Source: Alphaproteobacteria bacterium UBA6411 (lineage in GTDB: Bacteria > Pseudomonadota > Alphaproteobacteria > CAAGCB01 > CAG-977). From it: a stretch of 64,000 bases of DNA. Under the pieces are notes generated by a model, which was not told the origin of the DNA, did not search any database, and saw only the letters and a list, made by a program, of their open reading frames with translations. Positions 15,857 through 36,093 of the stretch are shown here, piece by piece. Both the position numbers and the translations under genes were made by a program. The stretch covers positions 61,684 through 125,683 of the forward strand of contig DJPN01000021.1 in assembly GCA_002438565.1 (NCBI GenBank), given 5' to 3'. Numbering within the stretch: position 1 is the stretch's first letter; the number at the start of each line of letters is the position of its first letter.

Positions 15857-16080
15857 AAATGCCTCGCAGAGTTAAGCGTTCAAATGTGTGTGACAAAAGT
15901 ATTATAGCCGAACGAAAATTTGAACACAACGCCCGCTTTTCGTCATACGAAAAGGCTATCCTGCCCAAAGACCACCCTCAATAAAATCAATCACTTGCGG
16001 CGGGGCGGAAAAGGCGTTTTTTTCGTTTTGTCGGACAAACGGGGTATCCCGCACCGACAAAACACCCCGTTTGCTTCTTG

Positions 16081-16401
16081 TCATATTTCCATCAATTCCG
16101 CGATTTTTTCACTGACAATGTTTGCGGCTTGAATGACAGGTTTCAGCGACAAATGCGTGTAGCGGTGCGTGATCGAATTGATGCTGTGTCCCAACATTCC
16201 CGCAATAATGTTATCCGAATATCCCATTTCCGCCGCCATCGTCGCGAAACTGTGCCGCAACGCGTGAGGGCAAAATTCCGCTTGTCCGACCGCCGCTTTG
16301 ATATGCTTTTCAAAGAACGCGACCAACGCCATCTTTTGCGGTTTGCCGAAGACGTATTCGTCCGCCGCCGGCGGCTGTTTTTCCTCTTTCAGCTTTTCCA
16401 T
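16081..16401 (-). pseudogene. C-terminal fragment of a second tyrosine recombinase (HALRHSFATMAAEMG ... GHSINSITHRYTH)
   Basis: Catalytic HxxR and H...Y motifs present, but the ORF is only 106 aa. Confidence 0.5.
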
Positions 16402-16622
16402 AAACCGCTTTGCCCCGGAGCCGAAAGGTCTGTCTTGCGCTCCGGTTTCTGATCGGAGACAAACAAGTTTTCAAAATCGCCAAGCCGTCCCAACGCGTTC
16501 GCCAAACGCAATAACGAATCAAAAGCGATCAGTCCTGTTCTTTCAAACCAGCGCAAAGACGCAAGCGTAACATCGGAACGGTCGCAAAGTCCTTGCTGAG
16601 ACAGGTTTTGCTCCAACCGCAA
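16389..16622 (-). CDS. XRE-type helix-turn-helix protein (possibly N-terminally truncated)
   Basis: LEQNLSQQGLCDRSDVTLASLRWFERTG resembles the XRE HTH; the start context is unclear. Confidence 0.35.
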   Translation of the reverse strand: MRLEQNLSQQGLCDRSDVTLASLRWFERTGLIAFDSLLRLANALGRLGDFENLFVSDQKPERKTDLSAPGQSGLWKS

Positions 16623-16844
16623 CGCCGAACGCCGGTCACAATCTTGACCAGATCATTTTGCCCCGCCCATTTCGATAAATCCTGAAGGTATTTAGGTCTG
16701 TCAATAAGCTGTATCGAAGCGTTTCCCATTGAAGAATCCTCCATTTATATAAGCACTTGACACTTTGTACTTTTTGTAAAATCAATGGTTTCGTAAAACG
16801 CAGTTTACAAAATATGATTTTTATCGTTTTTGAAAAGCGGTCCT

Positions 16845-18584
16845 TTATTCCCGATACAAGTGGCTTAAATCCAACCCGTCGTATTTCAGCTTGCAATTCA
16901 CCGTTTCGCGCAGGACTTTAAGGCTGACTTCTCCATAATGTTCGGAAAGGCTTGAGCCGCGCTCCCATCCTTGAATACGCGTTACAAACTCCGGATTGGC
17001 TTCATTATTCCGAAACTCGGTACGCACCGTATGACGGAAACTGTGGAAGACGTGACCTTCTTCAAACTTATCCGCTTTGGCTTTGATCCCTTTGTTCAAG
17101 CTGTCTAAAAAACGACCGAACCATTTGGAAATATCATCGGAATAATGTCCTCGTGCATTGACGCGCAGTTCGGGAAACAGCCTCTTTTCTTTGCGCATTT
17201 CTTTCACATAGTTCAAAAAACCGATCTTTATCAATTCATTGTGTAGGGGAACAAGGCGAATCCCCGCCTTTGTTTTGACATGCTTTTCTCCTTCATCGTT
17301 AATGCTGATGACCCAAACATCGTCAATTTGTCGGACATCGTTCGGGCTCAGTTGGCATAATTCGTTACATCTCGCGCCTGTGAAAATCCCCAACAACGGA
17401 ATCCAAAAACGCGCATGTCTCGGATGTGCGTTGCCTTTGATTGCATATCCACGTTTGTCGTCCCGACACCCTGTGTAAATTGGAGCGTTGAAGATATAAC
17501 TCAGTTGCCTTGCCGAAAAAGACAAACGTTTTATTTCGTCTTTTTCATTGGTTGCACACGGAACATCAACCGTATCATACGGATTCTCGATCAGATATTT
17601 ATACTTAACCGCCCAATCGAAAAAGCGTTTGATGACAACGAAGTAATCACCCAATGTTTTTGATCCGATGCATTCCGTCGGGTGTTTCTTTCCCCGTTCT
17701 ATATCTTTCAATACGTTGTATGTATCAGGTTTGCTGCGCGCGCTGTTTTTCGTGATGAACGGTAACAGTTCGACGGCATGTTGCAAGTCTTCCGTCGTTA
17801 CGGAACGCACCGTTTTATCTTTGCCCAAGATCTCTTGTAAAATATGGATTTTCTTGCTGACACGGTTTTTGGAATCGGCGGATTTGTTCTTGCGGGAATT
17901 CTGGTTGTTGTACACCTCCGCCAATGCGTCCAATGTCATATCGGGTTTTAACGGCGTTCTTAACAACATCGGAGAAGAAACGATATTCTCCCCGGTCAGT
18001 CCCGAAGGGACGCCCACAGTCAGACGTTGAGGAGGAATATCTGCTAATCCGATAGCGCAATGATGCATAAAATCGCAAAACTGCATTTCAGCGCGCATAA
18101 ATGCTTCTTCTAAGACTCGTTTGGAAGATTCTGTGGGAAACGGATAATTATTCCGCAGTAAAAAGGACTGACACTTCCGTTCAATAATCACGTAATCCGC
18201 CACGGCATATTTTGAACGCAACTGCGCAAACCGTTCCATATACGGTTCCGGTAACAACGGTTTTCCTGCGCAATTTTCCCGTTCTTCCGCAATTCGGGTC
18301 AGCAAATATTCGTATGCGAACGTTTCCGCTTGACTGCGGTCATAATCCAGCGTGTGTTCGTCCTTGTCGTATCCCATTTTTTTTGCCGTTTTTCCTCTGA
18401 AGTCCAACCGTTCGTACAAGTCCGACATTACCATGATATAGCGTCTTTGCGCAATTTGCTTATTCTTGGTTCTGAGGGACACCCACAGTTGTCTTTTGCC
18501 GACCAGACTACGGAAAGCAGTCGGTACATTCAATACCGCATAATACGATGTCCCACGATTATAAAGGCTCATCGTTACCTGCAA
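16845..18584 (-). CDS. int: Tyrosine integrase (phage/island integrase) adjacent to the tRNA-Gln 3' end
   Basis: N-terminal arm-type DNA-binding-like region; C-terminal HSFRHTVRT ... SEHYGE catalytic motifs; located ~100 bp from the tRNA 3' end, the classic island arrangement. Confidence 0.7.
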   Translation of the reverse strand: MQVTMSLYNRGTSYYAVLNVPTAFRSLVGKRQLWVSLRTKNKQIAQRRYIMVMSDLYERLDFRGKTAKKMGYDKDEHTLDYDRSQAETFAYEYLLTRIAEERENCAGKPLLPEPYMERFAQLRSKYAVADYVIIERKCQSFLLRNNYPFPTESSKRVLEEAFMRAEMQFCDFMHHCAIGLADIPPQRLTVGVPSGLTGENIVSSPMLLRTPLKPDMTLDALAEVYNNQNSRKNKSADSKNRVSKKIHILQEILGKDKTVRSVTTEDLQHAVELLPFITKNSARSKPDTYNVLKDIERGKKHPTECIGSKTLGDYFVVIKRFFDWAVKYKYLIENPYDTVDVPCATNEKDEIKRLSFSARQLSYIFNAPIYTGCRDDKRGYAIKGNAHPRHARFWIPLLGIFTGARCNELCQLSPNDVRQIDDVWVISINDEGEKHVKTKAGIRLVPLHNELIKIGFLNYVKEMRKEKRLFPELRVNARGHYSDDISKWFGRFLDSLNKGIKAKADKFEEGHVFHSFRHTVRTEFRNNEANPEFVTRIQGWERGSSLSEHYGEVSLKVLRETVNCKLKYDGLDLSHLYRE

Positions 18585-18647
18585 AATTCAAAGAGTGTTT
18601 ATTAGCAGGTCTATTAACAGTGCTAATAGATTCCACAGTACAAAAAA

Positions 18648-18682
18648 GCCAAGTTCGTTTTTTTTCAACGACTTGGCCTTTG
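18648..18682 (-). terminator. Rho-independent terminator downstream of tRNA-Gln
   Basis: Imperfect hairpin gccaagttcg/cgacttggc followed by a T-run on the minus strand. Confidence 0.45.
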
Positions 18683-18685
18683 AAG

Positions 18686-18760
18686 TGGCTGGGGCGGCTG
18701 GACTCGAACCAGCGAATGACGGAGTCAAAGTCCGTTGCCTTACCGCTTGGCTACGCCCCA
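18686..18760 (-). tRNA. tRNA-Gln (anticodon UUG)
   Basis: Manual fold: 5' TGGGGCG acceptor, GTAGCCAAGCGGTAAGGC D-arm, anticodon loop CTTTGAC, TTCGAGTCC T-arm, 3' CGCCCCA-G-CCA; 75 nt. Confidence 0.85.
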
Positions 18761-19879: not shown

Positions 19880-20940
19880 TGCAGTCCTCCTTGCAGGCAT
19901 TTTTCCGCCTCGTCAATCAAACGGCGGCGATAACCGCGGTCAATCCAAAAATTGCGTCCGATGCGCAACAAAGTCGTTCCCATATAAAACGGCACGCGTT
20001 TTGTTACGGCGTTGAATGCGGCTTCCGCATCGGGAAAGCGGCTGGCATATTCGCGCAAAAAGTGGTCAATGAACGGCTCGGCGGCCAGTCCGTCTTCCTT
20101 GGCGGACATAAAAAAATGCTTCAGCTCGCCCGCCATGCGTCCGATATCCGACGCGCGGTCTGCATACTGGCAGCGTTCCAAATCAAACGTTTTCACAACG
20201 TCGAAATCCCCGAAAACAAAGTTCGCGGGCGTTGCGTCGCCGTGTATCAGAACTTGGCAGTCTTCGCCCATTTCCGTTTTATCGCGCCATTGATCGCGCA
20301 AAGCGTAAAGAACATCTGCTTCGCCGTCCGCCAGCAAACTTTCATCCTGTTCAATGACTCGGTTCATATATTGGCACGCTTCGCTAAAGTCGGCGGGAAC
20401 ATCTATCGCCGTCCTGTTGTGCAGCTCCGCAAAGAAATGCGCCAGCGCGCCCAGTTTGTCATACAGCAACTGTTCGTCCTTGTCGTCAATGGCGCGGGAA
20501 ATGATATCGCCCAGCAGTTCGCCCGTACAAAATTCGACCGCCAGAAAGTTGCTCAAATTTTCATTTTTGCCCAAAGGCGCGGCAACGTAAAACGGTTCTT
20601 CGTCAAAGCCGTACGACCGCACTTTGACCAAATTTCCGTATTCGCGTTCCAAGCGTTTTTCGTCCTCGAAAAACTTGCCGATGATGCGCGCGCCCGTTTG
20701 GCGTTCTTCGTACAAAAACACGTCGTTCGATCCGTTCAGCCGCCAGACGTGATAACAGGGGTCTTCACAAAAATCCGCAATTTGCGGCTGAATGTCGTAT
20801 TTCAAATAGCCGTACAAATCATCGTCCGTTTCAACCGTACCCAAATAAATCATTGCCGTCCTCCTGTTTAGAAAGCGTATTGAACCGCCGCAGACAAAGT
20901 TGATATCACATTGTTGTCCGACCTTTTTTGATCCGCCCAC
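19873..20940 (-). CDS. Phosphotransferase-family (APH/choline-kinase-like) kinase
   Basis: Brenner-type catalytic motif VLIHGDATPANFVF and a D..D..G pattern characteristic of APH-fold kinases. Confidence 0.55.
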   Translation of the reverse strand: MGGSKKVGQQCDINFVCGGSIRFLNRRTAMIYLGTVETDDDLYGYLKYDIQPQIADFCEDPCYHVWRLNGSNDVFLYEERQTGARIIGKFFEDEKRLEREYGNLVKVRSYGFDEEPFYVAAPLGKNENLSNFLAVEFCTGELLGDIISRAIDDKDEQLLYDKLGALAHFFAELHNRTAIDVPADFSEACQYMNRVIEQDESLLADGEADVLYALRDQWRDKTEMGEDCQVLIHGDATPANFVFGDFDVVKTFDLERCQYADRASDIGRMAGELKHFFMSAKEDGLAAEPFIDHFLREYASRFPDAEAAFNAVTKRVPFYMGTTLLRIGRNFWIDRGYRRRLIDEAEKCLQGGLQA

Positions 20941-23900
20941 AGTTTCAGCCGCGTCCTGCGCGACAGATTGCTTTCCAGCCCGACCGACAAGGATAAATAG
21001 TCTTTGTCCGCGTCTTCCGCAAGCGATTCAAAGCTTGTCCGCGACGCGTCGTTGATAAAGTAAGCGGTCGTTGTCGGATTTCCGCCTGTCAGCAGTCTTT
21101 GCCAGCCGGCATCCAAAGTCAGAACGGCGTCCGCCCATATATAGCTCAGCTGCACCCCGGGCTGAATGGAAACGGACGTGTCGTTCGCGTCCGAAACCGA
21201 CAGGTTGATTGCGGACACTTCGCCTTTTTCCTTATAAGCGTCTTGATGCGTATAAGCTACATTCGCGCCGACATAAGGCCTCAATCCGAATGAATGGTCG
21301 CGGCGCGGCAAGAGCCCCAAAGTGTAACCGGCATTGATTCCGCCCTCGACCGTGTATCCGTTATATGACGATTTGCTGATGGCGGAAAGTCCCGTGATAT
21401 CGGTTTTGCGTCGTCCTTCGTAACGCTGGACGCCGCCCAAAACAACCGCATCCACATTGACGCGGCCAAAGCGCGTCCCTGCGTAAACGCCCGCGCGGTA
21501 ATCCTGCACAATCATTCTGTCGCCGTCTTGGGCCGAACGCGTATGGGCGAATCCCGCCGTCAAACCAAGCAAAAAGTCGTCGGACGATTGCCAATCAAAT
21601 CCGAACTGTCCGCCGACCGTATCCGATTTTTGCGTGCTGCGGCTTGTCTTTCCGGACACGCCGAAACGCGCATGACCGCCCAAAGCTTGCGCCCAAATTT
21701 TTGCCGTCGAAACGTCGTCGCCGCCCGACCTGCCGCGGTAATAACGCCCCCGATACCGGAATTGCGGCGTTTGATTGCGCAAAGCGGGAATGACTTCGCG
21801 CTGACTGCGGATTTGAAACAAATGCGAATAAACGTTGTTCGCCACAGTCCCCGACAGCGGCAGGCTTTGATTCCGCACGGCTTGAATTTGGTCGCGCACG
21901 GTGTTTATCGTTTTTTTCAGTTCCGTTCCCGATTGATAATAATAGCCGCGGAATTCTTTGTTGCCGTCCGTTTTAAACATTTTGTCGATTGCTTTGGCAA
22001 CGGACAGTTCTTTCGCGTCCAGTTCGGGCATGTTTGCCGGATCGCTCATATTCAAATAGGTAACCGTCATATTCAAACTGTTCCCGCTTTTGACCATCTT
22101 GCCGTCAACCAGCCCGATTAAGCGGATGGAGTCTTTGAAACCGCTCCCCACGGTCAAAGAGGACGACGCTTCCAGCACAGTATAAGTCTTTTCATCGTTG
22201 TACATCGCCAAAACCGATGTCGCCGCCGTAAATTGGCCTTTTGTCAAGACCGCCTCTTCCACGGTCATTTTCAGCAAATCGCCGTTCGCGTCGGTCAGCA
22301 AGGCGATATTGCCTTCGTTCGTAAACTTTTTCACGGAAAACGACGAACCGATTGTCGCCCCTTCCTTGTTGTTCAGCTCGCCGCCGGAAACGGCGACGGT
22401 TTCAAGCACGCCGTGGTTGTTGAAAACCGCCGAATCCGTATTTTGAATCGTCCCGCCCAAAGTTCCCGCATAATAATTGAACGTTCCCTCGTTAATCAAA
22501 ACCGCCGTTTCGGACGCCGTCGCCGCAAGCGAACCACCTTTCATCGTAAACGCCGATTGATTTTTCAAACCGCCCGTCAGCGCGCCGCCCGTCATGGTCA
22601 AAACGCCCGCGTTGCCGACTTCCCCCGACAATGTTCCGCCGGAAACTTCGGTTTTGCCCGAATTGCTCCACGCCCCCGCAACCGAACCTTTGCTGATTGA
22701 AGCCGTCGTTCCCGCCGCGATGTCCACCGCGCCCGCAATCGCCGCGCCGTCGACAACCAGTTTTCCCGTTCCGCCTGTTTTTGCGCCGCCTTCCAAAGCT
22801 CCAGTCAGCTTCAACGTTCCCGCGGAAACGGACGTGTCACCTTTATAAGTGTTTTTGCCGCTCAGCGTCAGCGTTCCCTCGCCCGTTTTTTCAAAACCCA
22901 ATTCCTCTGTCGTGTTTCGCTGGGAAATATCATTTGAAAACACAACGTCGAATTTCGTCGGAATTTCCAGCGTATATACGGCGGAATCCATGCGCGAACC
23001 GTCCAAAGCCCCCAATCCTTTCAAAGCTTTGCCGACATCCAAAATGCCCGCGCCGTACGCCTGCGCATAAGTAATTGACGCAAATTCGTACATTTCTCCG
23101 TCTTTCGTGCAGGATGTCTTTCCTTCGTTGCAGGTCAAGCCCAACTGCTTGATAACATCGTCTTGCGTAACAACCGCTTCGTTTTCGCCCGCCTTGTTGT
23201 CCGTAAAATAAACAATTCTGTATGCCGTATCGCCGTCTTCATCGGTCAGCTGCTGTTCCGCATAGGCCGAAAAGCCCGAAAAATCATTATTGGCCGTCGT
23301 CAGCAATACGTCACCGATTTGCTTGCCGCTCAGAAACGAAAACTTTTCCTGCACCAAAGCCGCCGCGCCCGATACAATCGGAGCCGCCGCCGACGTCCCG
23401 CTGACAGCCTCGTAACCGTTATTCCCTTCTCCGCCCGTTGCCGCGTAAATACCGACACCGGGGGCGGAAATCGTCCAATTCGCCGCATCCCCCGCCAAAT
23501 TTGTAAAGCTTGCCAAAAAAGAGGAACTGCTTTTGTCTTGCGAGGAATCAAACGCGACAACGTTAATCACATTTTTCAGCGTGCCGTCTGCAATCGGCGC
23601 CGCCGCGGGCAATAACGGATTGACGCCCATTTCGTTTCCCGCAGAAGCGACCAGCAGCTTGTTGGACACTTTACGCGCCAAATCCGCATATGCCTTTTTT
23701 GCCTCTTCGGTCAAAGAACTGCCCCAACTGGCATTAATAATTTTAACGTCTTTGTACGCATCCGACGCCAATGTATCGAAAATAGAGCTTATCGTCTGAC
23801 AGGTCGTGCAAACCGAATTGTCTTCGCTGGCTATGTCCTTTCCCGAAAAAGCCAGCAAATACGAATTGTACGCCACCCCCTGCAAACCCAGATCGTTTTG

Positions 23901-24185
23901 CGCCGCACCGATAACCGAAGCAACCGCCGTGCCGTGATTTTGCCGATGATCGCCCGACAGCGTCATTTTGTCCTTAAATTCCTGATGCGTCGCCCAAAAA
24001 CCGTTGTCAACGATTGCGACGCGCACATCCTTGCCGGACAGCCCTTCTTCATACGCCGAGGACAAGTTGATGGCGTCCCACGCGGATTTATTGACATTGT
24101 ATTCGGCATCCGAAGCCGACGCGGCGGCGGGGAACACCAACAAAGACAAAACAAACGGCAGTTTATTCATAGCGGCAACTTTCAA
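20868..24185 (-). CDS. Subtilisin-like (S8) serine protease autotransporter, NalP/AspA-like, 1105 aa
   Basis: Signal peptide; S8 catalytic triad motifs VAIVDNGF (D), HGTAVASVIGA (H), GTSAAAPIVSGAAAL (S); C-terminal beta-barrel ending ...AAVQYAF. Confidence 0.8.
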   Translation of the reverse strand: MKVAAMNKLPFVLSLLVFPAAASASDAEYNVNKSAWDAINLSSAYEEGLSGKDVRVAIVDNGFWATHQEFKDKMTLSGDHRQNHGTAVASVIGAAQNDLGLQGVAYNSYLLAFSGKDIASEDNSVCTTCQTISSIFDTLASDAYKDVKIINASWGSSLTEEAKKAYADLARKVSNKLLVASAGNEMGVNPLLPAAAPIADGTLKNVINVVAFDSSQDKSSSSFLASFTNLAGDAANWTISAPGVGIYAATGGEGNNGYEAVSGTSAAAPIVSGAAALVQEKFSFLSGKQIGDVLLTTANNDFSGFSAYAEQQLTDEDGDTAYRIVYFTDNKAGENEAVVTQDDVIKQLGLTCNEGKTSCTKDGEMYEFASITYAQAYGAGILDVGKALKGLGALDGSRMDSAVYTLEIPTKFDVVFSNDISQRNTTEELGFEKTGEGTLTLSGKNTYKGDTSVSAGTLKLTGALEGGAKTGGTGKLVVDGAAIAGAVDIAAGTTASISKGSVAGAWSNSGKTEVSGGTLSGEVGNAGVLTMTGGALTGGLKNQSAFTMKGGSLAATASETAVLINEGTFNYYAGTLGGTIQNTDSAVFNNHGVLETVAVSGGELNNKEGATIGSSFSVKKFTNEGNIALLTDANGDLLKMTVEEAVLTKGQFTAATSVLAMYNDEKTYTVLEASSSLTVGSGFKDSIRLIGLVDGKMVKSGNSLNMTVTYLNMSDPANMPELDAKELSVAKAIDKMFKTDGNKEFRGYYYQSGTELKKTINTVRDQIQAVRNQSLPLSGTVANNVYSHLFQIRSQREVIPALRNQTPQFRYRGRYYRGRSGGDDVSTAKIWAQALGGHARFGVSGKTSRSTQKSDTVGGQFGFDWQSSDDFLLGLTAGFAHTRSAQDGDRMIVQDYRAGVYAGTRFGRVNVDAVVLGGVQRYEGRRKTDITGLSAISKSSYNGYTVEGGINAGYTLGLLPRRDHSFGLRPYVGANVAYTHQDAYKEKGEVSAINLSVSDANDTSVSIQPGVQLSYIWADAVLTLDAGWQRLLTGGNPTTTAYFINDASRTSFESLAEDADKDYLSLSVGLESNLSRRTRLKLWADQKRSDNNVISTLSAAVQYAF

Positions 24186-24287: not shown

Positions 24288-24364
24288 CGGTCCCGTAGCT
24301 CAGCTGGATAGAGCAACAGCCTTCTAAGCTGTGGGTCCCGCGTTCGAATCGCGGCGGGATCACC
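24288..24364 (+). tRNA. tRNA-Arg (anticodon UCU)
   Basis: Manual fold: GGTCCCG acceptor, GTAGCTCAGCTGGATAGAGC D-arm, anticodon loop CTTCTAA, CCGCGTTCGAATCGCGG T-arm, CGGGATC-A-CCA; 77 nt. Confidence 0.85.
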
Positions 24365-24410
24365 AAAATAAAAACCCTCGACTTGTTCGGGGGTTTTTGT
24401 TTTATGTGAA

Positions 24411-24517
24411 ATCCGCCGGCGAGAAGGACGCGGGACGCGTTCGGCCGCCCTTGGCGACGACGCCGTCAAGCGGGGGCGAAAGCCCCGAGCGTTAGCGAGC
24501 AACCGCGGCGGGGTGAT
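24411..24517 (+). repeat. tRNA-Arg-associated structured element, copy 2 (homologous to 19001-19113)
   Basis: gcgagaaggacgcgggacgcgttcgg ... gcgacgacgccgtcaagcgg-hairpin(gggggcgaaagcccc)-gagcgttagcgagc ... aaccgcggcggggtgatac (degenerate copy of the tRNA-Arg(UCU) 3' end). Confidence 0.6.
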
Positions 24518-24548
24518 ACTTTTTATTTTTTGATTTTGGCTCTAAAAT

Positions 24549-24560
24549 CAAAAAAAAAAA
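24549..24560. repeat. Homopolymeric A12 tract within an AT-only inverted repeat (ttttttgatttt / aaaatcaaaa)
   Basis: Direct count of 12 consecutive A. Confidence 0.8.
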
Positions 24561-24819
24561 ACGCACTTAAATCAAAGCGTTACAACTAATCAGATTTAAC
24601 GTCCGTTTGATTCGGGAATTTCGGGCAAAATCTGCCGCCACTCGAAATGATAGAAAATTTGTCATTCTTGCAAAATATTATTGCAATCAAAAGCTAAGTT
24701 TGCTATATGCAATAAAAACGGAGGATATCTTTGAAAAAATCTTTCGTTCAAACGAGGAAGGCAGGGGGATAAAATCGAATGAACACAGCATTTGTCAGAT
24801 ATTGCGGATATATAAAATG

Positions 24820-24831
24820 CCCCCCCCCCCC
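24820..24831. repeat. Homopolymeric C12 tract ~120 bp upstream of hldE, just downstream of a TTGTCA-15-TAAAAT promoter-like sequence
   Basis: Direct count of 12 consecutive C; lies in the intergenic/5' leader region of the heptose operon. Confidence 0.8.
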
Positions 24832-24951
24832 TATACGAACGGGAAGCCCCGCTTATGTCCAGAGCAATCAGCTTAAAACACGGGGGAAAAGTGCCGTCAA
24901 CGCGCTTCTCAATCTAAATCCCGTTCACTTGATAAATTGAGGAGAGGCTTC

Positions 24952-26424
24952 ATGCCCTTACTGGCTTCGTATATTAGAAATTTCAAAAATTTACGCATTC
25001 TGGTTATCGGAGACATTATGCTGGATCGTTTCGTATACGGCAAAGTCGAACGCATTTCGCCCGAAGCGCCTGTCCCCGTGTTTGATTTCAAAAAATCGTC
25101 CGACATGCTGGGTGGAGCGGGAAACGTTGTCGCAAATTTAGTGTCTTTGGGGGTGAAGACCTCTTTTATCGGCGTGGTCGGGCAAGATGACAGCGCGCGG
25201 GAAATTTCATCCTTGTTGGGAAAATTGGGGGCGTGTCATCATTTGATTCGGCTGAAAAACTATCCGACAATCGTCAAAACGCGCTTGATTGCCGGCAACA
25301 CGCATTTGCTGCGCGTCGATTGCGAAGAAAAATGGTTTACGCCGGATTCTGTTTTGCCGACCATTCGTTCCATTATTGAAAAAGCGGTAAAAAATGCGGA
25401 TTTGGTTCTTTTGTCGGATTATGCCAAGGGTGTTTTGGCCAAATCGACGGCGCAGGCGATTATCGCCGAATGTTGCAAAGCGGGTAAAAAAGTCCTTATA
25501 GATCCGAAAGGTTCCGATTGGTCGAAATACGAAAACGCAACTCTGGTCAAGCCGAATTTGAAAGAATTCAAAGAAGTGTGCGGACTTTCCGTCAATCCGT
25601 CGGATTCCGATTTTACGAAACATCTGTCCGACGGCGCAAAGCTGATTTTTAAACGCTATAAAATCAAAAGCCTGCTGATTACCTTGTCCGAACACGGTAT
25701 GGCGTACATTCATTCGTCCTCTCCCGACGAGGTTTATCAAATTCCCACCCAAGCCAAAGAAGTTTTCGACGTATCGGGTGCGGGGGATACGTCTTTGGCG
25801 ACCTTTGGCGCGGCATTCGGCGCGGGCGCTTTGCCCAAGGATGCGATGAAGCTGGCAAACACGGCGTCGGGCATAGTCGTCGGCAAAGTCGGAACGGCGT
25901 GCATTTCCGCAAACGAATTGGAAAACGCCCTGTCCGAACGCAATCCGGCCGCCGTGCCGAAAAGCAAAATCGTATCGCCGGAACAAGCCGCCGAAATCGC
26001 CGTTGAATTAAAGAAAAGCGGCAAAAAAACGGGCTTTACCAACGGCTGTTTCGATTTATTGCATTTGGGACATTTGCGATCGTTTGAAAATGCCAAAAAG
26101 GAATGTGACGTTTTGTTCGTCGGCGTGAATTCGGATGCGAGCGTCAAGCGCCACAAAGGCGATTCCCGCCCGATCCAAGATGAAAAAACGCGCGCTTTGC
26201 TGGTCGCTTCATTGGAAACGGTGGATTATGTCATCGTTTTTGACGACGACACGGCGCTTCCTTTGGTCGAAAAAATCCGTCCCGACGTTATCGCGAAAGA
26301 GGGTTATTTGCTTCAAAACTGGCCGGAGGCGCAATTCGTCGTTTCTTACGGCGGCCGCGCCGTTACGTTAAAGCGCGTTGACGGCTATTCCACCACGCAA
26401 ACCGTTGAAAGGATTAAACACTGA
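24952..26424 (+). CDS. hldE: Bifunctional D-beta-D-heptose 7-phosphate kinase / D-beta-D-heptose 1-phosphate adenylyltransferase
   Basis: N-terminal PfkB-like kinase domain and C-terminal cytidylyltransferase-like domain (GCFDLLHLGHLRSFENAKKECDVLFVGVNSD); gaggagagg RBS before the internal ATG. Confidence 0.85.
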   Translation: MPLLASYIRNFKNLRILVIGDIMLDRFVYGKVERISPEAPVPVFDFKKSSDMLGGAGNVVANLVSLGVKTSFIGVVGQDDSAREISSLLGKLGACHHLIRLKNYPTIVKTRLIAGNTHLLRVDCEEKWFTPDSVLPTIRSIIEKAVKNADLVLLSDYAKGVLAKSTAQAIIAECCKAGKKVLIDPKGSDWSKYENATLVKPNLKEFKEVCGLSVNPSDSDFTKHLSDGAKLIFKRYKIKSLLITLSEHGMAYIHSSSPDEVYQIPTQAKEVFDVSGAGDTSLATFGAAFGAGALPKDAMKLANTASGIVVGKVGTACISANELENALSERNPAAVPKSKIVSPEQAAEIAVELKKSGKKTGFTNGCFDLLHLGHLRSFENAKKECDVLFVGVNSDASVKRHKGDSRPIQDEKTRALLVASLETVDYVIVFDDDTALPLVEKIRPDVIAKEGYLLQNWPEAQFVVSYGGRAVTLKRVDGYSTTQTVERIKH

Positions 26425-26990
26425 TGCAGCAGGAAATCATTGCTTCGTTTCAGGAAAACGTTGCCGGTTTTACGGAAATCCAAACTTTGGCGCCCGTTAT
26501 CGAAAAAATCGCGCTGATATGCATTGACGCGATCCGCAACAACCGCAAAGTGATGTTTTGCGGCAATGGCGGTTCGGCGGCGGATTCGCAGCATTTGGCG
26601 GCGGAGCTGGTCGGGCGGTATAAAATGAACCGCCCCGCAATGAATGCGATAGCTTTGACAACGGACAGTTCGATTTTGACGGCGATCGGGAACGATTACG
26701 GTTATGACACGATTTTTGAACGCCAGGTCGAAGGCTTGGGGCAAAAAGGCGACGTTTTGGTCGGCATATCGACTTCGGGCAATTCAAAAAATGTGCTGCG
26801 CGCTTTTGAAATGGCGCGCAAAAAAGGCGTTTCGACGGTTGCTTTTACGGGAAAATCGGGCGGCAGAATGAAAGAAACGGCCGATATTTGCGTCAACGTG
26901 CCGTCCGACGTCACAAACCATATTCAAGAAATGCACATTGCCGTCGGGCATTTGATTTGCGGATTGGTCGAAAGGGTTGTCAATGGCTAA
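26424..26990 (+). CDS. gmhA: Phosphoheptose isomerase (SIS domain)
   Basis: SIS-domain motifs ...VMFCGNGGSAADSQHLAAEL ... GISTSGNSKNV...; start overlaps the hldE stop. Confidence 0.85.
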   Translation: MQQEIIASFQENVAGFTEIQTLAPVIEKIALICIDAIRNNRKVMFCGNGGSAADSQHLAAELVGRYKMNRPAMNAIALTTDSSILTAIGNDYGYDTIFERQVEGLGQKGDVLVGISTSGNSKNVLRAFEMARKKGVSTVAFTGKSGGRMKETADICVNVPSDVTNHIQEMHIAVGHLICGLVERVVNG

Positions 26991-27495
26991 AGCTTTGTTT
27001 TTGGATCGCGACGGTACAATCAACATTGATTACGGATACGTTTTTGAACCCGAACGGTTTGAATTCGTTGACGGAATCTTTGATTTATGCCATGCGGCGC
27101 AATCCAAAGGCTTTAAAATCATTGTTTGCACGAACCAATCGGGCATTGCGCGCGGGTATTTCACCGAAGCCGACTTTCAAAAAATTACGGCGCATATGGT
27201 GAAAAAGTTTTCTGAACAACGCATTGAAATCGCGGACGTTTTTCATTGTCCGACATTGGACGGCATTGACCGCAAGCCCAATACGGGAATGTTCGTCAAA
27301 GCGCGCGACAAACACGGAATCAATATGGCGGCAAGTATTTCCTTGGGTGACAGCGAACGCGACGTGATTGCGGGAATAAACGCAGGCGTCGGAACAAATT
27401 ATTTGTTGTCGAAAAAGAAAATCGCCGCTCCGATTTGCCCCGTTGTTTCAAGCTGCCGCGAATTGGCGGAACTCATTGAAAAAGGTGTCGAATGA
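26977..27495 (+). CDS. gmhB: D,D-heptose 1,7-bisphosphate phosphatase (HAD, histidinol-phosphatase-like)
   Basis: ALFLDRDGTIN motif I, CTNQSGIARGYF motif; overlaps the gmhA end. Confidence 0.8.
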   Translation: MSMAKALFLDRDGTINIDYGYVFEPERFEFVDGIFDLCHAAQSKGFKIIVCTNQSGIARGYFTEADFQKITAHMVKKFSEQRIEIADVFHCPTLDGIDRKPNTGMFVKARDKHGINMAASISLGDSERDVIAGINAGVGTNYLLSKKKIAAPICPVVSSCRELAELIEKGVE

Positions 27496-28616: not shown

Positions 28617-28619
28617 TTT

Positions 28620-29828
28620 ATGAAAAATTATTTTGAAAAACTTGAACGCAGAGTTCAAAAATATAAAACAAAATATGCAAATCGCCCGCGCAAAGCCGCA
28701 TTCAAACTCGCCTTGTGGAATACATTGTGCGTGTTTAAACGGCACAAACGTCAAGATATCGTTGATTTACAAAGCATAACAAAACCTGTCAACAAAATTG
28801 CACTTGCAATTAACGGCGGCATAGGCGATTACATCACAGCAATAAATTATGCTGCATACCTTTATAATTTTTTAAACAAACAAACACCGATAGATATTTT
28901 TGTAAAAAATCCCAAAAGCATGAAAACTCTTTTCAGCAAATCTGTCAATTTTGATTTTTTTGAACGGGATTCCATTCATGAAAAAAAGGAATATCCGCTT
29001 AAACTGAATTTGAATAGATTTCCAGAGATACTATACTGCAATGAAACCGCCCTGCATGAAATGATGCCGAATGTTATTCCTTTGCTCAACGCTTGGGAAA
29101 AAATTAAAAAAGAAGCGGGGTTGTATTTTGAAATTGACCCCCGCGCAGACGCCTTAACCGTGCAGTACGCGCAAGTTAACGGTGCCAAAAAAAGAATACA
29201 GCAACCGGATATTGACGGAATATTAGGTGTTAAGGAAGAACACCTTATAAAACTTTATCCCGAAAGTACAACGGAAGTTTTAGAAAAATTCGGATTAAAC
29301 GATTGCGTTTTTATCACAATGAACCGCGGAACGGATACAGGCAACAAAGATAACGAAGTTACGCGTATGTGGCCCTTGGAAAATTATGCAAAACTTGTAA
29401 AATTGATAAAAAACAAATATCCTCGATGCAAAATCGTGCAGTTGGGATATTCCCCCGAATGGTGCAGGCTCATAGACGGCATTGATATTGATTTGCGCGG
29501 AAAAACAACGCTTTTTGAACTGAAGTCCCTGCTTTTTGCATCCGCCTTGCACATAGATTACGAAGGAGGAATGGTTCATTTACGAAAAGCGTTAGGGGTG
29601 GGAAAATCCATAGTCCTGTTTGGTCCGACAAACCCTAACTGGCTAGGATATGATACAAATATCAATATCTGCACAAACAAATGCTGTTTTTGTGAAAATC
29701 TCACTCCGAATTGGCAAAAATATTGCTCGAATCATAAATTTCCACACATTTGCATGGAAAGCATAACTCCTGAAATGGTATTCAATAAAGTCAACGCAGT
29801 TTTATCTTCTGTAAAAAGCCGAGTGTAA
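28620..29828 (+). CDS. Second, paralogous GT9-like glycosyltransferase; AT-rich codon usage
   Basis: N-terminus MKNYFEKLERRVQKYKTKYANRPRKAAFKLALW parallels the N-terminus of the upstream gene; noticeably lower GC. Confidence 0.65.
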   Translation: MKNYFEKLERRVQKYKTKYANRPRKAAFKLALWNTLCVFKRHKRQDIVDLQSITKPVNKIALAINGGIGDYITAINYAAYLYNFLNKQTPIDIFVKNPKSMKTLFSKSVNFDFFERDSIHEKKEYPLKLNLNRFPEILYCNETALHEMMPNVIPLLNAWEKIKKEAGLYFEIDPRADALTVQYAQVNGAKKRIQQPDIDGILGVKEEHLIKLYPESTTEVLEKFGLNDCVFITMNRGTDTGNKDNEVTRMWPLENYAKLVKLIKNKYPRCKIVQLGYSPEWCRLIDGIDIDLRGKTTLFELKSLLFASALHIDYEGGMVHLRKALGVGKSIVLFGPTNPNWLGYDTNINICTNKCCFCENLTPNWQKYCSNHKFPHICMESITPEMVFNKVNAVLSSVKSRV

Positions 29829-29849: not shown

Positions 29850-30206
29850 TCAGTATGGATATTTCAGACGAATTTCCGCTTTTGTGTTCAGCCACAGCGT
29901 TTTCTTTTCATCCGCATCCGGACTGTTTGTCGCAACCGCTTCATCATAGTCGAATTTCAACGGATCGGCGAATGTGCAAAAAGCTTGCTGTCTGTTTTTG
30001 CGGGCGGTTTCCCTCGCGATTTCAAGCGGAACGGACGGCAACGCGCTTTTCGCATAATATCCGCCGTCATATCCGACAACGATTTCTTCATCGGTTTGCG
30101 ACACGGTGAAATCGTTTAATCCGATAATTTTGCAGTTTTCGGTCAATTCCGCTTCCGTTTTGTTAAAAGCGACGATTTTCCCGTTTTTGGTTGCTGTATG
30201 CATCAG
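29850..30206 (-). CDS. Small protein (~118 aa from MHTATKNG) translationally coupled to the tail-fibre gene; possible tail-fibre chaperone/assembly factor
   Basis: TGATG stop/start overlap with the upstream tail-fibre gene; the longer ORF-track version (start 30380) overlaps the fibre gene and is unlikely. Confidence 0.4.
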   Translation of the reverse strand: MMHTATKNGKIVAFNKTEAELTENCKIIGLNDFTVSQTDEEIVVGYDGGYYAKSALPSVPLEIARETARKNRQQAFCTFADPLKFDYDEAVATNSPDADEKKTLWLNTKAEIRLKYPY

Positions 30207-31072
30207 TTGTTTTCCCCTTGTGCGTAAATAAATCTGAACACGTTTGTTTTGCCCTGCAGGCTGTAGCCGATTGCAACGGAACTTCCTTTTCGCGCAGGCA
30301 AAGCCACAGAGAGCTCGTATCCCGCATGCGACGATACGATGTTGTATCCCAAATTCGACATGTCTTTGATACACACCCATTCACCGGCGTATTTGGCGTC
30401 TTTTGCCAACACGAACCACCCGTCCGCGGGTGCCGTGTAAAAATGCCCGCTTTCCTGCAATGTCAAATCAACGTATTTACCGCTCGGCATGCTTAAATTT
30501 GAAACAACGGATTTCCCCTCTGCTGTCAAATTGCCCAAATCCGCATTTGCTTTTGTTTCCAGCATCGCCGCCGTATTGACCTCCGATGACGCGGCGTTCG
30601 CTGCAGACGCTGTTGCGGCGGCCGCTTTCTCGACAGCCGTTTGGGCGGCCGCAGTGCAATCGGAAACCGCTTTTCTAATGCTGGGAATCAAGCTGTCCGC
30701 CGCCGTGTCGTCGAAAATATCCACTGTTACGGCGCGCGCGGATTTTTCCGCCAGCTGTTGCACCTGCATCGTCAGCTTGTCAAAGTTGCGTTCCAGCGTT
30801 TCGGCGTGCAAAATCTCGTTGTCGCGGTAGTCCGTTTCCTGCGTCAAAGGCACTTCGCGCACAATCGCGATTTCCGCCCCGTTTTCGGGAGCGTCCGCAA
30901 ACACCAGATTGCCGCCTTTGACCGTCCAGTCCGTCCGTTCCGTCTGTATGTCGTTCTTTTTCTGCCTGACTTTGATATGCTCCTTTTCCAAAAAGGAAAA
31001 CGGGATTGCAAACTCTTTCGCAACCCCGTTTCCGATATAAATCACCTTGTTTGTTTGACTGCTTACCGTCAT
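30203..31072 (-). CDS. Phage T7-type tail-fibre protein (N-terminal Phage_T7_tail-like domain, Ala-rich shaft, C-terminal tip), 289 aa
   Basis: KVIYIGNGVAKEFAIPFSFLEKEHIKV and DNEILHAETLERNFDKLTMQVQQLAEKSA resemble the T7 gp17 N-terminal region as recalled from memory; gagagga RBS 7 nt upstream. Confidence 0.6.
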   Translation of the reverse strand: MTVSSQTNKVIYIGNGVAKEFAIPFSFLEKEHIKVRQKKNDIQTERTDWTVKGGNLVFADAPENGAEIAIVREVPLTQETDYRDNEILHAETLERNFDKLTMQVQQLAEKSARAVTVDIFDDTAADSLIPSIRKAVSDCTAAAQTAVEKAAAATASAANAASSEVNTAAMLETKANADLGNLTAEGKSVVSNLSMPSGKYVDLTLQESGHFYTAPADGWFVLAKDAKYAGEWVCIKDMSNLGYNIVSSHAGYELSVALPARKGSSVAIGYSLQGKTNVFRFIYAQGENN

Positions 31073-31182: not shown

Positions 31183-33447
31183 TTACTTAAACCGGCAATC
31201 ATTTTGATTTTCTTCCTTGACAAAGCTTTGTTCCAGCGAGCTTTTGCGCAGGTATTCCACAAAATCGTACACTTCTTCCGCAGAAGCTCCGTTTTCCAAC
31301 AAAGTTTTGGCAATCACGGCATATTCCATCCCCAAACTGGTCTGGAACACCGCGCTGTCATCCGTGTTGACGCATACCGGCACATCGCAATCCGCCGCGG
31401 CCAAAGAATAAAGGCCGTGCCTGTTCAGCGCAAACAGCGGCAAATCCGCAAAGTTGTCTATCGGCGATATTTTCCGGTTTGACGACGGATTGGCTTCAAC
31501 GGCTATTCCTTTTTCCGCAATCAGCTTTTTCAGAAAAGACTGACATTCGGACAGAACTTTCAAATACGTTTCGTCAACGCGGATTTTAACCTCTTTGTTC
31601 CTTTGTTTTTTATATTTTTCATCGTAAAAATAGCACCAATTCAGCTTGCGCGCCGTTTCGCTTCGGACAGCTTCGCGATAAGCGGCATTTCCACCGTTTT
31701 GCCGCCAAACTTCGAGAGAATTCGGGGCGTCCCCTTCTTGATTGTACAGTTCGGGATCATCCGCCCTCAACCGCCATGAAGCCAGATAAGTGTCTATATC
31801 CACGGCGCAAAAATCGCCCCGTCCTTCAAAAATCACATTTCTGATTTCCGTAAAGCGGTTTGAAACCTCAAACGACAGCAAAGGGTCAGCCCCCTGTTTC
31901 CTCAGCATGAAAAACAGCCACGCCAGATTGTCCAGATATTCCCCCGCCGGTATGACGACACATTCCATTCGTGTTTGCGCCAGCTGCCGCGGGCATGCCC
32001 CCAAAGCCAATGCATGTCCCAATCTGTCCCCGCGCCGGAAATTAAAGAAATCAATCACTTCATAGATGGCGCGCAAACCGGAACACAGCGACGTGTACAC
32101 TTCCCCGACATGGTAAGTAAACGATAAATCCGCCTTTTCGGCGCGGCATCGTCTGAAATACGGCGCATACAATTCGGGCTTCACGCACAATTCATCCCCC
32201 GCCGCGTCAATGCCGACGACATATTGAGAATAGGAACTGTTCAGCAGTCCTAAAATTTTTCTTGATTGATTGTTTATATCGCTTGTTTGGTGTAAAAGCG
32301 TTTTTCCTTTTTTCTTTATAAAGTGAAATATATACCCGCAATTCGGTTTGTTTTCGCCGTAAACGGATGTCAGCGAAGCGTCCATTTCGCTTTGAATATA
32401 TTTGAACTTTCTTTTTGTTTGAGGTGCGATTCTGAATTCGATTTTTGAAACAATATTTTCTTCGCTATACTTTTCAGCTATGCTTTTGTAAAGTTCTCCT
32501 TTGCCGCTGAACAGCAAATCTTTTTTAGCTTGACACTTTTGGAATTTTTCAAACCCCATGCCTATATTGTCCTGTGTAAACATAAAGAATTTTTGCACAA
32601 AACCTGTCAGATACAGATTGAATAAATCTCTGAACAATGGCTGAAAATCGTCTGTTTTTAAAAAACAGTTTTTCAAAAATCGCCGCTCACATTCGTAAAT
32701 TTGTCCGTTTTTATTTTTTTCGTCCAAACAATGCTGCATCCAGCGAAAATTATCCATATATTGCGCAACATTTCCATAATCTTTCGCGTCAAGAATGTTC
32801 ATGATGTCTTTCCGCGATAAAAAATTTTCATTCATAATATAATATTCAAGATATATTCTCAGCATTTTTAATTTCAGAGAAAAAATATCATCAAATTCTT
32901 TTATTTTGCAATAAAATGGCTTTTTGTAAATAAACGCGTACCAATTCAGCTCCGTCGAATATCCCGAAGCGTTCAAATGCATGTGGTTTTCGGCAACACC
33001 TTTTTCTTTCAAAGTGCTGCACAGCCGATGATTGTCATGTCCCGGCAAAAAAGAAAGCGGCAAATCTTTGGACGGGAACGCTGCGATATAAATATCGGCG
33101 GGCGCAACATTGATAAAATCATTCCATTCCAATAAATTGTCAAAGTTGATTTCGAGCTTTCTCCCTTTCGGGATCAAGTATTTTTTTGCCGCTTTAACAA
33201 ACATCTCATCGGCAAAGAAATGTTGCTTATCCCCGATTTTTTCATTGATGATGTTGTCCAGCAAAGCTTCCGAATAATTGTTTGGAAACAGCCTCAAGTA
33301 CCGGTCTTTAACCGTTTGATACGTTTTTTCATCTTTTAAATCAAAAGCCTCGCCGTCCGTATAGTCCGCGGAAACAATCCGTTCGCACAGATTGTTAAAA
33401 TCCGCGTCCTTATACGCACAACGAATCAATCGCTCCAAGTTCCTCAT
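31183..33447 (-). CDS. Large divergent adenosine-deaminase-family protein (RADAR RdrB-like), 754 aa
   Basis: All four ADA-fold metal/catalytic motifs in order: NHMHLNAS (HxH), YHVGEVY (HAGE-like), DRLGHALALG (GH), CVNTDDSAV (SLNTDD); large insertions and a ~130-aa N-terminal extension; AT-rich. Confidence 0.7.
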   Translation of the reverse strand: MRNLERLIRCAYKDADFNNLCERIVSADYTDGEAFDLKDEKTYQTVKDRYLRLFPNNYSEALLDNIINEKIGDKQHFFADEMFVKAAKKYLIPKGRKLEINFDNLLEWNDFINVAPADIYIAAFPSKDLPLSFLPGHDNHRLCSTLKEKGVAENHMHLNASGYSTELNWYAFIYKKPFYCKIKEFDDIFSLKLKMLRIYLEYYIMNENFLSRKDIMNILDAKDYGNVAQYMDNFRWMQHCLDEKNKNGQIYECERRFLKNCFLKTDDFQPLFRDLFNLYLTGFVQKFFMFTQDNIGMGFEKFQKCQAKKDLLFSGKGELYKSIAEKYSEENIVSKIEFRIAPQTKRKFKYIQSEMDASLTSVYGENKPNCGYIFHFIKKKGKTLLHQTSDINNQSRKILGLLNSSYSQYVVGIDAAGDELCVKPELYAPYFRRCRAEKADLSFTYHVGEVYTSLCSGLRAIYEVIDFFNFRRGDRLGHALALGACPRQLAQTRMECVVIPAGEYLDNLAWLFFMLRKQGADPLLSFEVSNRFTEIRNVIFEGRGDFCAVDIDTYLASWRLRADDPELYNQEGDAPNSLEVWRQNGGNAAYREAVRSETARKLNWCYFYDEKYKKQRNKEVKIRVDETYLKVLSECQSFLKKLIAEKGIAVEANPSSNRKISPIDNFADLPLFALNRHGLYSLAAADCDVPVCVNTDDSAVFQTSLGMEYAVIAKTLLENGASAEEVYDFVEYLRKSSLEQSFVKEENQNDCRFK

Positions 33448-34076
33448 TGGTCTTCCGGCATAAACTGCGGGTATTTTTTCAGAAGTTCTGTCAAATCTTT
33501 ATAATACCAGCTTTTGTATGATTTTTTACCGACATTTTTCAAATGGTTTGAAATATTCTTCGCTTTTGAAGCATCATCGTCTAAAAGAGCTTTAGACATT
33601 TTGTTTGAAATATCTTTCCAATCTTCGAACGTGATATTTACCAAGAAGTTTCTTACTTTTTCTTCATCAGCACTAAGAATAGGATTATCAAGTTTCATAT
33701 TTTCAAGAATTCTAACATCATGTATATTAAATAATTCACTACAATTATCTTGGCAAAATTTCATTTTTGACAACATTTTTTTTAAACCGATCTCATATTG
33801 AGAATGATTTTTAGAATCTCCTTTCTCATCCAGCAACCAGTTAATTTTTTCATAAATTTTCTCAACAAAGCAACTTTTCTTATTATAAAATGTAACTCGC
33901 ATAAACACATCCACATCAAACAAAGAATAAAACAAATATCCGCCATTCTGAATGGCTTTCAACAGATAATTTTTCTTCAGAACAGCGCTCAACGGATCCG
34001 ACCTATAATTTATGTTATTATTATCATTCCATTCAGATTTTTCATCATTTTCAATAACTATTTGATCATGATACAT
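33444..34076 (-). CDS. Hypothetical 210-aa protein within the RADAR-like cassette (no TM segment, no known motif)
   Basis: ORF overlaps the upstream NTPase gene by 19 nt and the downstream deaminase gene by 4 nt; very AT-rich. Confidence 0.45.
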   Translation of the reverse strand: MYHDQIVIENDEKSEWNDNNNINYRSDPLSAVLKKNYLLKAIQNGGYLFYSLFDVDVFMRVTFYNKKSCFVEKIYEKINWLLDEKGDSKNHSQYEIGLKKMLSKMKFCQDNCSELFNIHDVRILENMKLDNPILSADEEKVRNFLVNITFEDWKDISNKMSKALLDDDASKAKNISNHLKNVGKKSYKSWYYKDLTELLKKYPQFMPEDQ

Positions 34077-35986: not shown

Positions 35987-36043
35987 TATCATCATCCTTT
36001 CGTTGATATGCAACTTATCGGATGATGATAAGACGTTTTGTCG

Positions 36044-36065: not shown

Positions 36066-36093
36066 TTGTACGCCTTTCGGCTATATTGGCGCA

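Follow-up and report, generated by a model that had tools for sequence, protein, structure and literature searches.

A predicted compound phase-variation region upstream of a heptose operon in an uncultured alphaproteobacterium

Two polymorphic DNA elements upstream of hldE

The analyzed window, the whole stretch of 64,000 nucleotides of contig DJPN01000021.1 from Alphaproteobacteria bacterium UBA6411, carries an operon for ADP-heptose synthesis that begins with hldE and is preceded by a non-coding stretch of 385 bp. Two DNA polymorphisms were found in this stretch: a 107-bp segment that occurs in both orientations and, 104 bp downstream of it, a perfect poly-C tract of variable length (Table 1). 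Judging from comparisons of near-identical sequences, we assign a probability of about 0.55 to the view that the stretch is a functional compound phase-variation region. The objects for comparison were contigs of the same species from independent metagenomes with HldE proteins 99%–100% identical to that of the window, found by exact-protein look-up and designated L001, L002, etc.

These contigs fell into two lineages. The window, L001, and L002 matched one another without a mismatch over about 1,100 nt, comprising the 107-nt core, the mid region of 95 nt, and flanks of 200 nt upstream and 700 nt downstream. L007–L009 had one common set of single-nucleotide polymorphisms (SNPs), three in the core and five downstream. 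The invertible core, a feature absent from the original prediction for this region, was the exact reverse complement of the window sequence in L001, L002, L007, and L008 (orientation B), representing four samples and two assemblers, and was colinear with the window in L009 (orientation A). BLAST aligned the flipped form to the window as reversed high-scoring segment pairs (24722->24602) with 97.5%–100% identity, and 0–3 core mismatches remained after re-orienting. The inversion breakpoints were located at the 7-bp cores of 19-nt inverted repeats, the arms of which are 74% complementary and 107 nt apart. Since a 7-bp repeat is far below the assembler k-mer and two assemblers gave the flipped form, an assembly artefact is implausible. 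Both orientations were present in each of the two SNP lineages, and therefore at least two independent inversions have occurred. Recurrent inversion on near-identical backgrounds is, as far as consensus contigs can tell, characteristic of an active switch rather than of a single ancient rearrangement, and the inverted segment is at least as important as the C tract.

A resemblance of the left repeat to the Bacteroides fragilis Mpi consensus ARACGTWCGT was treated as chance (8/10 positions in one arm and 6/10 in the other). The 7-mer of the switch repeat is about 4-fold over-represented across the window. The 9-mer CGTCCGTTT, which equals the left repeat of the switch, occurs four times at 20823–22836, inside the autotransporter gene, as two inverted pairs (20823/21170, 338 nt apart, and 21965/22826, 852 nt apart). 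These pairs may be intragenic invertons with the same recombinase or an effect of codon usage.

The poly-C tract had been noted in the original prediction as a perfect C12 run about 120 bp ahead of hldE, and its position was exact. The next-longest runs in the window are 6 nt for C/G and 8 nt for A/T, and the order-0 expectation is 0.004 for C runs and 0.003 for A runs of at least 12 nt. C12 is a strong outlier in 64 kb; the A12 run located 258 nt upstream of it is less remarkable because A/T run lengths decay slowly in AT-rich intergenic DNA. The tract consisted of 12 C in the window, 14 in L001, 13 in L002, 14 in L007, 24 in L008, and 14 in L009, while contig L010 starts within the tract with at least 13 C. 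No interruption was present in 6/6 assemblies. The hypermutability proposed for the tract, with a comparison between isolates as its test, was supported at the level of samples: lengths of 12, 13, and 14 occurred on the 1,100 nt of identical sequence, and lengths of 14, 24, and 14 in the second lineage. The A12 run, used as an internal control, was invariant, which argues against homopolymer artefacts in general. In practical terms, the poly-C tract breaks assemblies (contigs L010 and L011 break there), and the switch creates alternative contigs.

TABLE 1 Positions of the control elements, operon genes, and other features in the window
Feature	Position	Strand	Remarks
198-aa tyrosine recombinase, catalytic domain only	8568–9164	+	PF00589, E = 4e-23; 15.4 kb from switch
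579-aa integrase	16845–18584		Beside tRNA-Gln
Subtilase autotransporter	20868–24185	-	Beyond tRNA-Arg
tRNA-Arg(TCT)	24289–24365	+	ARAGORN; Rfam 66 bits; upstream neighbor in the lineage of the window
AT-only hairpin with A12	24520–24561	.	Arms 24520–24537 and 24544–24561, 18 nt, 94% complementary
Left inverted repeat	24590–24608	.	19 nt, imperfect; perfect core TCCGTTT at 24602–24608
Invertible core, two divergent promoter-like elements	24609–24715	.	Flipped in L001, L002, L007, and L008
Right inverted repeat	24716–24734	.	Core AAACGGA at 24716–24722; GGAGG at 24720–24724
Fixed region between switch and tract, two promoter-like sites	24747–24818	+	Consensus scan, position weight matrix scan
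Hypervariable poly-C tract, C12 in the window	24820–24831	+	120 nt before hldE ATG (24952)
Structured leader RNA candidate	24834–24930	+	Alignment and RNAalifold with L012 and L005
hldE Shine-Dalgarno sequence GAGGAGAGG	24939–24947		
hldE, bifunctional heptose-7-phosphate kinase/heptose-1-phosphate adenylyltransferase	24952–26424	+	Pfam PfkB and CTP_transf_like
gmhA, sedoheptulose-7-phosphate isomerase	26424–26990	+	TIGR00441, 223.2 (cut-off 209.45)
gmhB, heptose-1,7-bisphosphate phosphatase	26983–27495	+	TIGR00213, 155.1 (cut-off 149.6)
GT9-like glycosyltransferase paralogue A, 374 aa	27492–28616	+	32% identity to paralogue B, E = 3e-54
GT9-fold glycosyltransferase paralogue B, 402 aa	28620–29828	+	PF01075, 29.2 bits (cut-off 22)

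Promoter-like sites and the leader RNA

The tRNA-Arg gene is followed by a hairpin with a T-run (CCCTCGA/TCGGGGG, about 24375–24403), which was read from the sequence and was not called by the terminator scan. This structure should insulate the operon from upstream transcription. Given this arrangement, the operon promoter must lie in the stretch ahead of hldE, and the C tract sits in the only non-coding stretch able to hold the promoter and leader. The fixed region that separates switch and tract holds two promoter-like sites, TTCAAA-N17-TAAAAT at 24747–24775 and TTGTCA-N15-TAAAAT at 24792–24818. Their position weight matrix (PWM) scores of 12.2 and 11.8 are at about the 90th percentile when the best site of each 560-nt chunk is ranked. 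The latter site, separated from the C run by one base, had been recognized in the original prediction.

The invertible core contains two divergent sites with a common central TTGCAA...TTGCAA region. In the window orientation, TTGCAA-N16-CTATAT (24681–24708) faces hldE; it fits the alphaproteobacterial -10 consensus CTATAT/GCTANAWC. When the core is flipped, hldE is faced by TTTGCA-N16-TATCAT (24674 to 24647 on the minus strand), with TTTACA in the second lineage. The switch may swap two promoters rather than turn one off. Assignment of ON and OFF states to the orientations by promoter scoring was tried and abandoned, as promoter prediction did not discriminate between them. A cwpV-like terminator specific to one orientation was not found, and the RNA folds of the two orientations were unremarkable (z-scores of -1.0 and -0.2).

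The C tract belongs to no annotated open reading frame (ORF) and to no predicted promoter spacer, being located downstream of the -10 element of every promoter-like site found and never between -35 and -10. Therefore, the change of promoter spacing initially proposed as one possible mechanism is unlikely, and an effect at the leader level is more likely. A search for an arrangement of the Bordetella fim poly-C type revealed only one hexamer after the tract, TATACG, without the conserved final T, and no -35/activator arrangement. The tract falls in the probable leader and in a possible upstream ORF (uORF).

The leader RNA downstream of the tract has a minimum free energy (MFE) of -39.6 kcal/mol (z = -2.55) and no Rfam match. 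Helix P1 is formed by GAACGGGA (24837–24844) and TCCCGTTC (24919–24926), and helix P2 by CCCCG/CGGGG. Both helices are invariant, and the loops AUGUCCAGAGC and GCUUAAAA are conserved, between the window (24834–24930) and the relatives L012 (310–429) and L005 (1–118). This leader may represent an uncharacterized cis-regulatory RNA of heptose operons. Rfam searches of the whole window at gathering thresholds and of positions 24370–24990 at E ≤ 10 yielded only tRNAs and noise, and no known riboswitch, leader, or small RNA (sRNA).

In L012 and L014, encoding HldE with 94% and 87% identity, respectively, hldE directly follows an ATP-binding cassette transporter gene, and both the tract and the switch are absent. 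L012 and L005 (92% HldE identity) keep the leader from 24834 on; the L005 contig begins just 3' of the tract position. By this comparison, the block comprising switch and tract was acquired recently, in this species only, and was joined to a leader of older origin. A scan of Joint Genome Institute (JGI) metagenomes with the conserved leader gave 0 hits, and a scan of genome contigs returned only the 92% relative and a 55% Gastranaerophilales hit without a similar upstream region. Exact-protein look-ups with gmhA, gmhB, the 374-aa glycosyltransferase, and the autotransporter provided no further upstream regions. Paralogous copies of the control module were not found in the window or in relatives. 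A blastn search of positions 24400–24951 against plasmids and phages gave no match, which sets the module apart from known mobile promoter cassettes.

The possible uORF starts from ATG at 24779, reads through the tract, and contains 4–8 consecutive prolines in any frame. Its end relative to the hldE ATG depends on the tract length: with 12, 15, or 24 C, the TGA is 11 nt before the ATG, over the Shine-Dalgarno sequence, whereas the distance is 75 nt with 13 C and 34 nt with 14 C. If transcription starts upstream, the C run is paired in the MFE structure with GGGGG at 24764–24768. Possible routes of action in the leader are RNA structure, the uORF frame, Rho loading on poly(C), and an sRNA partner. 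Perfect complementarity over 15 nt was observed between the leader (24893–24907) and the 3' end of hldE (26371–26385), just before gmhA; it is probably due to chance, since L012 shows no conservation on the leader side.

Proposed two-step switch and alternative explanations

We propose that two independent stochastic DNA switches are arranged in series within the 385-bp stretch. In the first step, site-specific inversion of the 107-bp core between the TCCGTTT/AAACGGA cores of the imperfect repeats would determine which of the two divergent promoter-like elements faces the operon. In the second step, the poly-C tract would change its length by slipped-strand mispairing and most likely act within the transcribed leader, through RNA structure, the uORF frame, or termination. 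Together, these events could produce several expression states of the accessory glycan module across the population. The comparisons establish the two polymorphisms, their recurrence on invariant backgrounds, the lack of both elements in sister species, and the identities of the genes; an effect of either polymorphism on expression, the ON orientation, the transcription start, and the acting recombinase are inferred. An improbable elaboration of this scheme is a two-layer stochastic controller, in which inversion would pick the promoter and transcribed poly(C) would attenuate expression to a degree set by its length, as a Rho patch and/or through a polyproline uORF with a length-dependent frame and stop position. 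A gut-associated alphaproteobacterium would in this way produce ADP-heptose and the transferases in graded, heritable amounts. Since ADP-heptose acts as an agonist of innate immunity (ALPK1-TIFA pathway), a soluble immune signal, and not only a surface epitope, would be phase variable if such a controller exists.

Several observations weigh against a functional compound region. Only six full observations of the tract are available, several of the assemblies have a coverage of 2.7–4.7x, and one-base differences could be noise; the difference between C24 and C12–14 is outside sequencing noise and cannot be explained in this way. All evidence for polymorphism comes from comparison of samples (consensus contigs), whereas the hallmark of phase variation would be heterogeneity inside one population. 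The perfect repeat is only 7 bp long, and no recombinase gene is present within 6 kb of the switch. The core sites have PWM scores of 9.15 and 9.29, near the background median of 9.8 for the best site per 560-nt chunk and under the scores of the fixed sites. Being outside the promoter spacer, the tract has no established route to expression here. Other long G/C tracts are missing in the 64 kb; as to homopolymers being a habit of the clade, no G/C run of at least 8 nt was found in 15 loci from relatives.

The operon could instead, in the manner of a classical promoter repeat, be driven by the fixed promoter TTGTCA-N15-TAAAAT, with the C tract covering the start site and the inversion being secondary, in which case tract length would alter initiation via reiterative transcription, the discriminator, or the early leader. 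This site abuts the tract and has the second-best score in the region (11.8), and a start 5–9 nt after its -10 element would be inside the C run. However, its spacer of 15 nt is two short of the optimum, spacing would be unaffected by the length of a tract not located between -35 and -10, and above about 8 bases the start context is equal for C12 and C24, so little would change at initiation. Moreover, sigma-70 initiation with CTP is disfavored. On balance, we consider control by the fixed promoter unlikely. Attenuation in the leader would require a start upstream of 24779 and translation of the uORF through the tract, the length of which would set the number of prolines and the uORF end and would thereby change translational coupling or the exposure of poly(C) to Rho. 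It appears decidedly unlikely because the uORF exists in this species only, its 3' half overlaps the leader conserved as RNA and not as peptide, and L009 has AAG instead of ATG, albeit in a contig with 2.7x coverage and next to the homopolymer. The computed uORF frames, the GGGGGA motif 9 nt ahead of the hldE ATG, and the leader composition (47 C versus 35 G) nevertheless agree with it. Poly(C) is a classic Rho ligand, and polyproline uORFs control the Salmonella mgtA/mgtCBR leaders.

Both polymorphisms could also be real but non-regulatory: the tract would then be a neutral slippery scar of the operon's move to the tRNA, and the inversion would reflect occasional template switching between short inverted repeats, without a dedicated recombinase or an effect on expression. 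Such a neutral origin is difficult to reconcile with two precise independent inversions against 0–3 core substitutions, implying that inversion is far more frequent than point mutation, and with a C12–C24 run that should decay by interruption, yet is perfect in all six assemblies. The presence of two mutable devices in one 230-bp stretch before a surface-glycan operon likewise makes it a poor candidate, even though the module is young and species-specific, no recombinase is adjacent, the perfect repeat is limited to 7 bp, and the core promoter-like sites are no better than background. Finally, the tract-length differences might be sequencing or assembly artefacts at a homopolymer, given the 2.7–4.0x coverage of L007–L009, the rise of Illumina errors at long G/C runs, and the break of L010 and L011 at the tract. 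We regard this as highly improbable: C24 versus C12–14 is far outside slippage noise and needs spanning reads, A12 is constant in the same contigs, three lengths occur on three otherwise identical sequences from independent projects, and the inversion would be left wholly unexplained.

Comparison with known phase-variation systems

Each half of the region belongs to an already known kind, one being an inverton and the other a G/C homopolymer contingency tract. Invertons of gut bacteria have been surveyed with PhaseFinder and PhaVa (PMC11868660, PMC10403206). Like these invertons, Escherichia coli fimS (FimB/FimE), and the B. fragilis capsule promoters (Mpi), the hldE switch is a short intergenic segment with short inverted repeats (9 bp in fimS; a 7-bp core within 19 bp here), occurs in both orientations, is located directly upstream of a surface-structure operon, and has a tyrosine recombinase of FimB/FimE size (198 aa) in its genome neighborhood. 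It differs in the smaller core (107 bp), the absence of an adjacent recombinase, the second mutable element in series, the promoters of the core, which are only predicted and face both ways, and the host, an uncultured alphaproteobacterium. The Clostridioides difficile flgB and cwpV switches (RecV) comprise an invertible element of about 150–200 bp, placed in a long leader that separates the first gene from the promoter region, and in flgB the second control element of the leader is a cyclic di-GMP riboswitch. The hldE region similarly combines an invertible element with a second, leader-borne one, and action after initiation is possible. In contrast to the C. difficile switches, no orientation-specific terminator was found, and the second element is a mutable DNA tract and not a ligand sensor.

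Homopolymer phase variation is known for the Bordetella fim poly-C, the Neisseria porA/opc/fetA tracts, and the Moraxella uspA1 poly-G in the 5' untranslated region (5'-UTR). The hldE tract resembles promoter and leader homopolymer systems in being a perfect G/C run of at least 12 nt upstream of an operon related to surface glycans or lipopolysaccharide (LPS), with polymorphic length in near-identical genomes. It is distinguished by a wide range of lengths (12–24) and by an operon that supplies the nucleotide-sugar donor itself and not only a transferase. In porA, fetA, and fim, the tract is between -35 and -10, which is not the case in the hldE region. Precedents for repeats acting from the 5' leader are the G-repeat in the Helicobacter pylori tlpB-hp0102 leader, tuned by the sRNA RepG (PMC8295292), and a Haemophilus influenzae simple sequence repeat (SSR) with a 5'-UTR RNase III element (PMC12721329). 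As in tlpB and uspA1, the hldE tract is probably within the transcribed leader. Phase-variable glycosyltransferase genes for lipooligosaccharide (LOS) or LPS include Neisseria lgt, H. influenzae lic/lgtC, and those of Campylobacter jejuni and Pasteurella multocida (PMC9176279, PMC8355987). Stochastic switching of surface oligosaccharide decoration would be common to these genes and the hldE operon. However, in the former the repeat is usually inside the transferase ORF, whereas the ORFs of the hldE operon are without repeats and control is placed upstream of an operon for both donor and transferases.

In the searchable literature, no account was found of an operon preceded by both an inverton and an SSR in series, although the search was not exhaustive. 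Three aspects appear to be new: the serial arrangement of two such elements ahead of a single operon, the lineage of the host, and a cargo made up of donor pathway and transferases. Phase variation is well mapped in a small number of pathogens and in Bacteroides and hardly in uncultured gut Alphaproteobacteria; the hldE locus would show that the latter use it, with inversion and slipped-strand mutation stacked on one control region. With the two devices stacked, about 230 bp would be enough for more than two heritable states of expression.

Operon genes and predicted glycan cargo

HldE exceeded the NCBIfam cut-off for domain I (TIGR02198, 351.4 versus 345), while domain II (160.8 versus 181.5) and the full-length HldE model (456 versus 521) were under their cut-offs. 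The gene order hldE-gmhA-gmhB-GT9-GT9 given in the original prediction holds for hldE, gmhA, and gmhB; the last two genes are paralogues, and only the second of them, encoding the 402-aa protein, passes the Pfam threshold for glycosyltransferase family 9 (GT9). The 374-aa paralogue had no Pfam or NCBIfam match. An AlphaFold2 (AF2) model was obtained for the 402-aa protein only (mean predicted local distance difference test score, pLDDT, of 91.6) and showed the GT9 heptosyltransferase fold. Its best Protein Data Bank (PDB) folds were WaaF 1psw (E = 8e-13), Veillonella GT9 3tov, TibC 4rap, and WaaC 2gt1, with E-values from 8e-13 to 3e-8 and template modeling (TM) scores of about 0.5–0.6. A PDB search by sequence matched neither paralogue. 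With the WaaC/WaaF equivalog models, the 402-aa protein scored 25.8 versus a cut-off of 134.6 (TIGR02195) and 17.4 versus 185.3 (TIGR02193), and the 374-aa protein gave no hit. Homologues of these transferases were found in Gilliamella, 'Acetobacter sp. CAG:267', and the Gram-positive Pseudobutyrivibrio and Clostridiaceae; given the Gram-positive homologues, the acceptor may not be LPS.

The assignment of the operon to the LPS core was not supported, with transferases far under the WaaC/WaaF cut-offs and having homologues in Gram-positive bacteria. The cargo comprises ADP-heptose synthesis and two GT9-fold transferases, for which a role in the LPS core is plausible. Judged by its gene content, the operon (HldE, GmhA, GmhB, and the two transferases) would be an accessory glycan module that is self-contained. 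The window also encodes LpxK, EptA, and a lipid A acyltransferase, and its RpoD carries the proteobacterial non-essential region.

Four C-terminal cysteines (C355, C358, C369, and C378 in the 402-aa protein) are conserved in both paralogues and in 50 homologues, and this set recalls the metal-binding cluster of TibC-type heptosyltransferases. Membership in the TibC/Aah-type autotransporter heptosyltransferases was considered and rejected, since there was no PDB sequence match and TibC was accompanied by other GT9 enzymes among the fold matches.

The 3' end of the operon varies among closely related lineages: the window has the second GT9-like gene (28617–29828), L008 and L014 have a gene for an NAD-dependent epimerase, and L012 and L013 have a split Acyl_transf_3 gene. 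It is a variable glycan-modification cassette, and such a difference is typical for surface-glycan loci. In the AT-rich relatives L019–L023, with 62% HldE identity, an Acyl_transf_3 gene directly upstream of hldE encodes 372, 249, or 216 aa depending on the sample, because of a TATT indel and the deletion of some 380 bp. These differences add to the variation seen at the population level among accessory genes of heptose loci.

Junction DNA, recombinases, and defense genes around the operon

The original prediction also placed an A12 run at 24549–24560 inside an AT-only palindrome and treated it as a mutable tract. The run and the palindrome are present, one base further on (24550–24561), where A12 forms the 3' arm of the hairpin. 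Mutability was not upheld: A12 is identical in the three contigs carrying it (window, L001, and L002) and absent from the second lineage. L007–L009 have A5 only, and their homology to the window starts at about 24557–24567; other DNA lies to the left, with a relaxase gene ending about 65 nt before the shared sequence. Because of this different DNA, the A12 hairpin and the GC-rich block preceding it are lineage-specific junction DNA outside the control module, the shared part of which extends from about 24567 to the hldE ATG. The GC-rich block of about 110 nt (24405–24515) separates the tRNA-Arg terminator from the AT hairpin; L001 and L002 have it unchanged, and L007–L009 lack it. It contains no Rfam hit and no convincing ORF and may have been left behind by an element that had integrated at the tRNA. 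The relaxase element of L007–L009 partly resembles the tRNA-Gln island of the window (L007 694–883 matches window 15998–15808 at 93%).

Either the 198-aa recombinase or the 579-aa integrase could be a candidate invertase acting in trans. The former scored 23.5 bits against the NCBIfam model of tyrosine-type DNA invertases (cut-off 221), and its synteny is kept in four other contigs. Both are encoded in a mobile/defense island at 5086–18760, together with a Cas4-like DUF2779 protein, a DpdF-like helicase, AbiD, and an HNH nuclease; the integrase is located at tRNA-Gln.

Downstream of the operon, on the minus strand at 31183–36115, genes for an RdrB-like adenosine deaminase (PADLOC RdrB, 1e-29), a 210-aa ORF, and a KAP/P-loop NTPase form a cluster that looks like RADAR-like defense. 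The cargo is unusual in that a whole nucleotide-sugar donor pathway with transferases is placed among phage-defense genes. Together with these neighbors, it suggests switching of a phage receptor or an immune epitope, and possibly of ADP-heptose release. Between the glycan operon and the defense genes, in chromosomal surroundings and at 30203–31072 on the minus strand, a 289-aa protein with the N-terminal domain of the phage T7 tail fibre (PF03906, 28.6 bits) is encoded.

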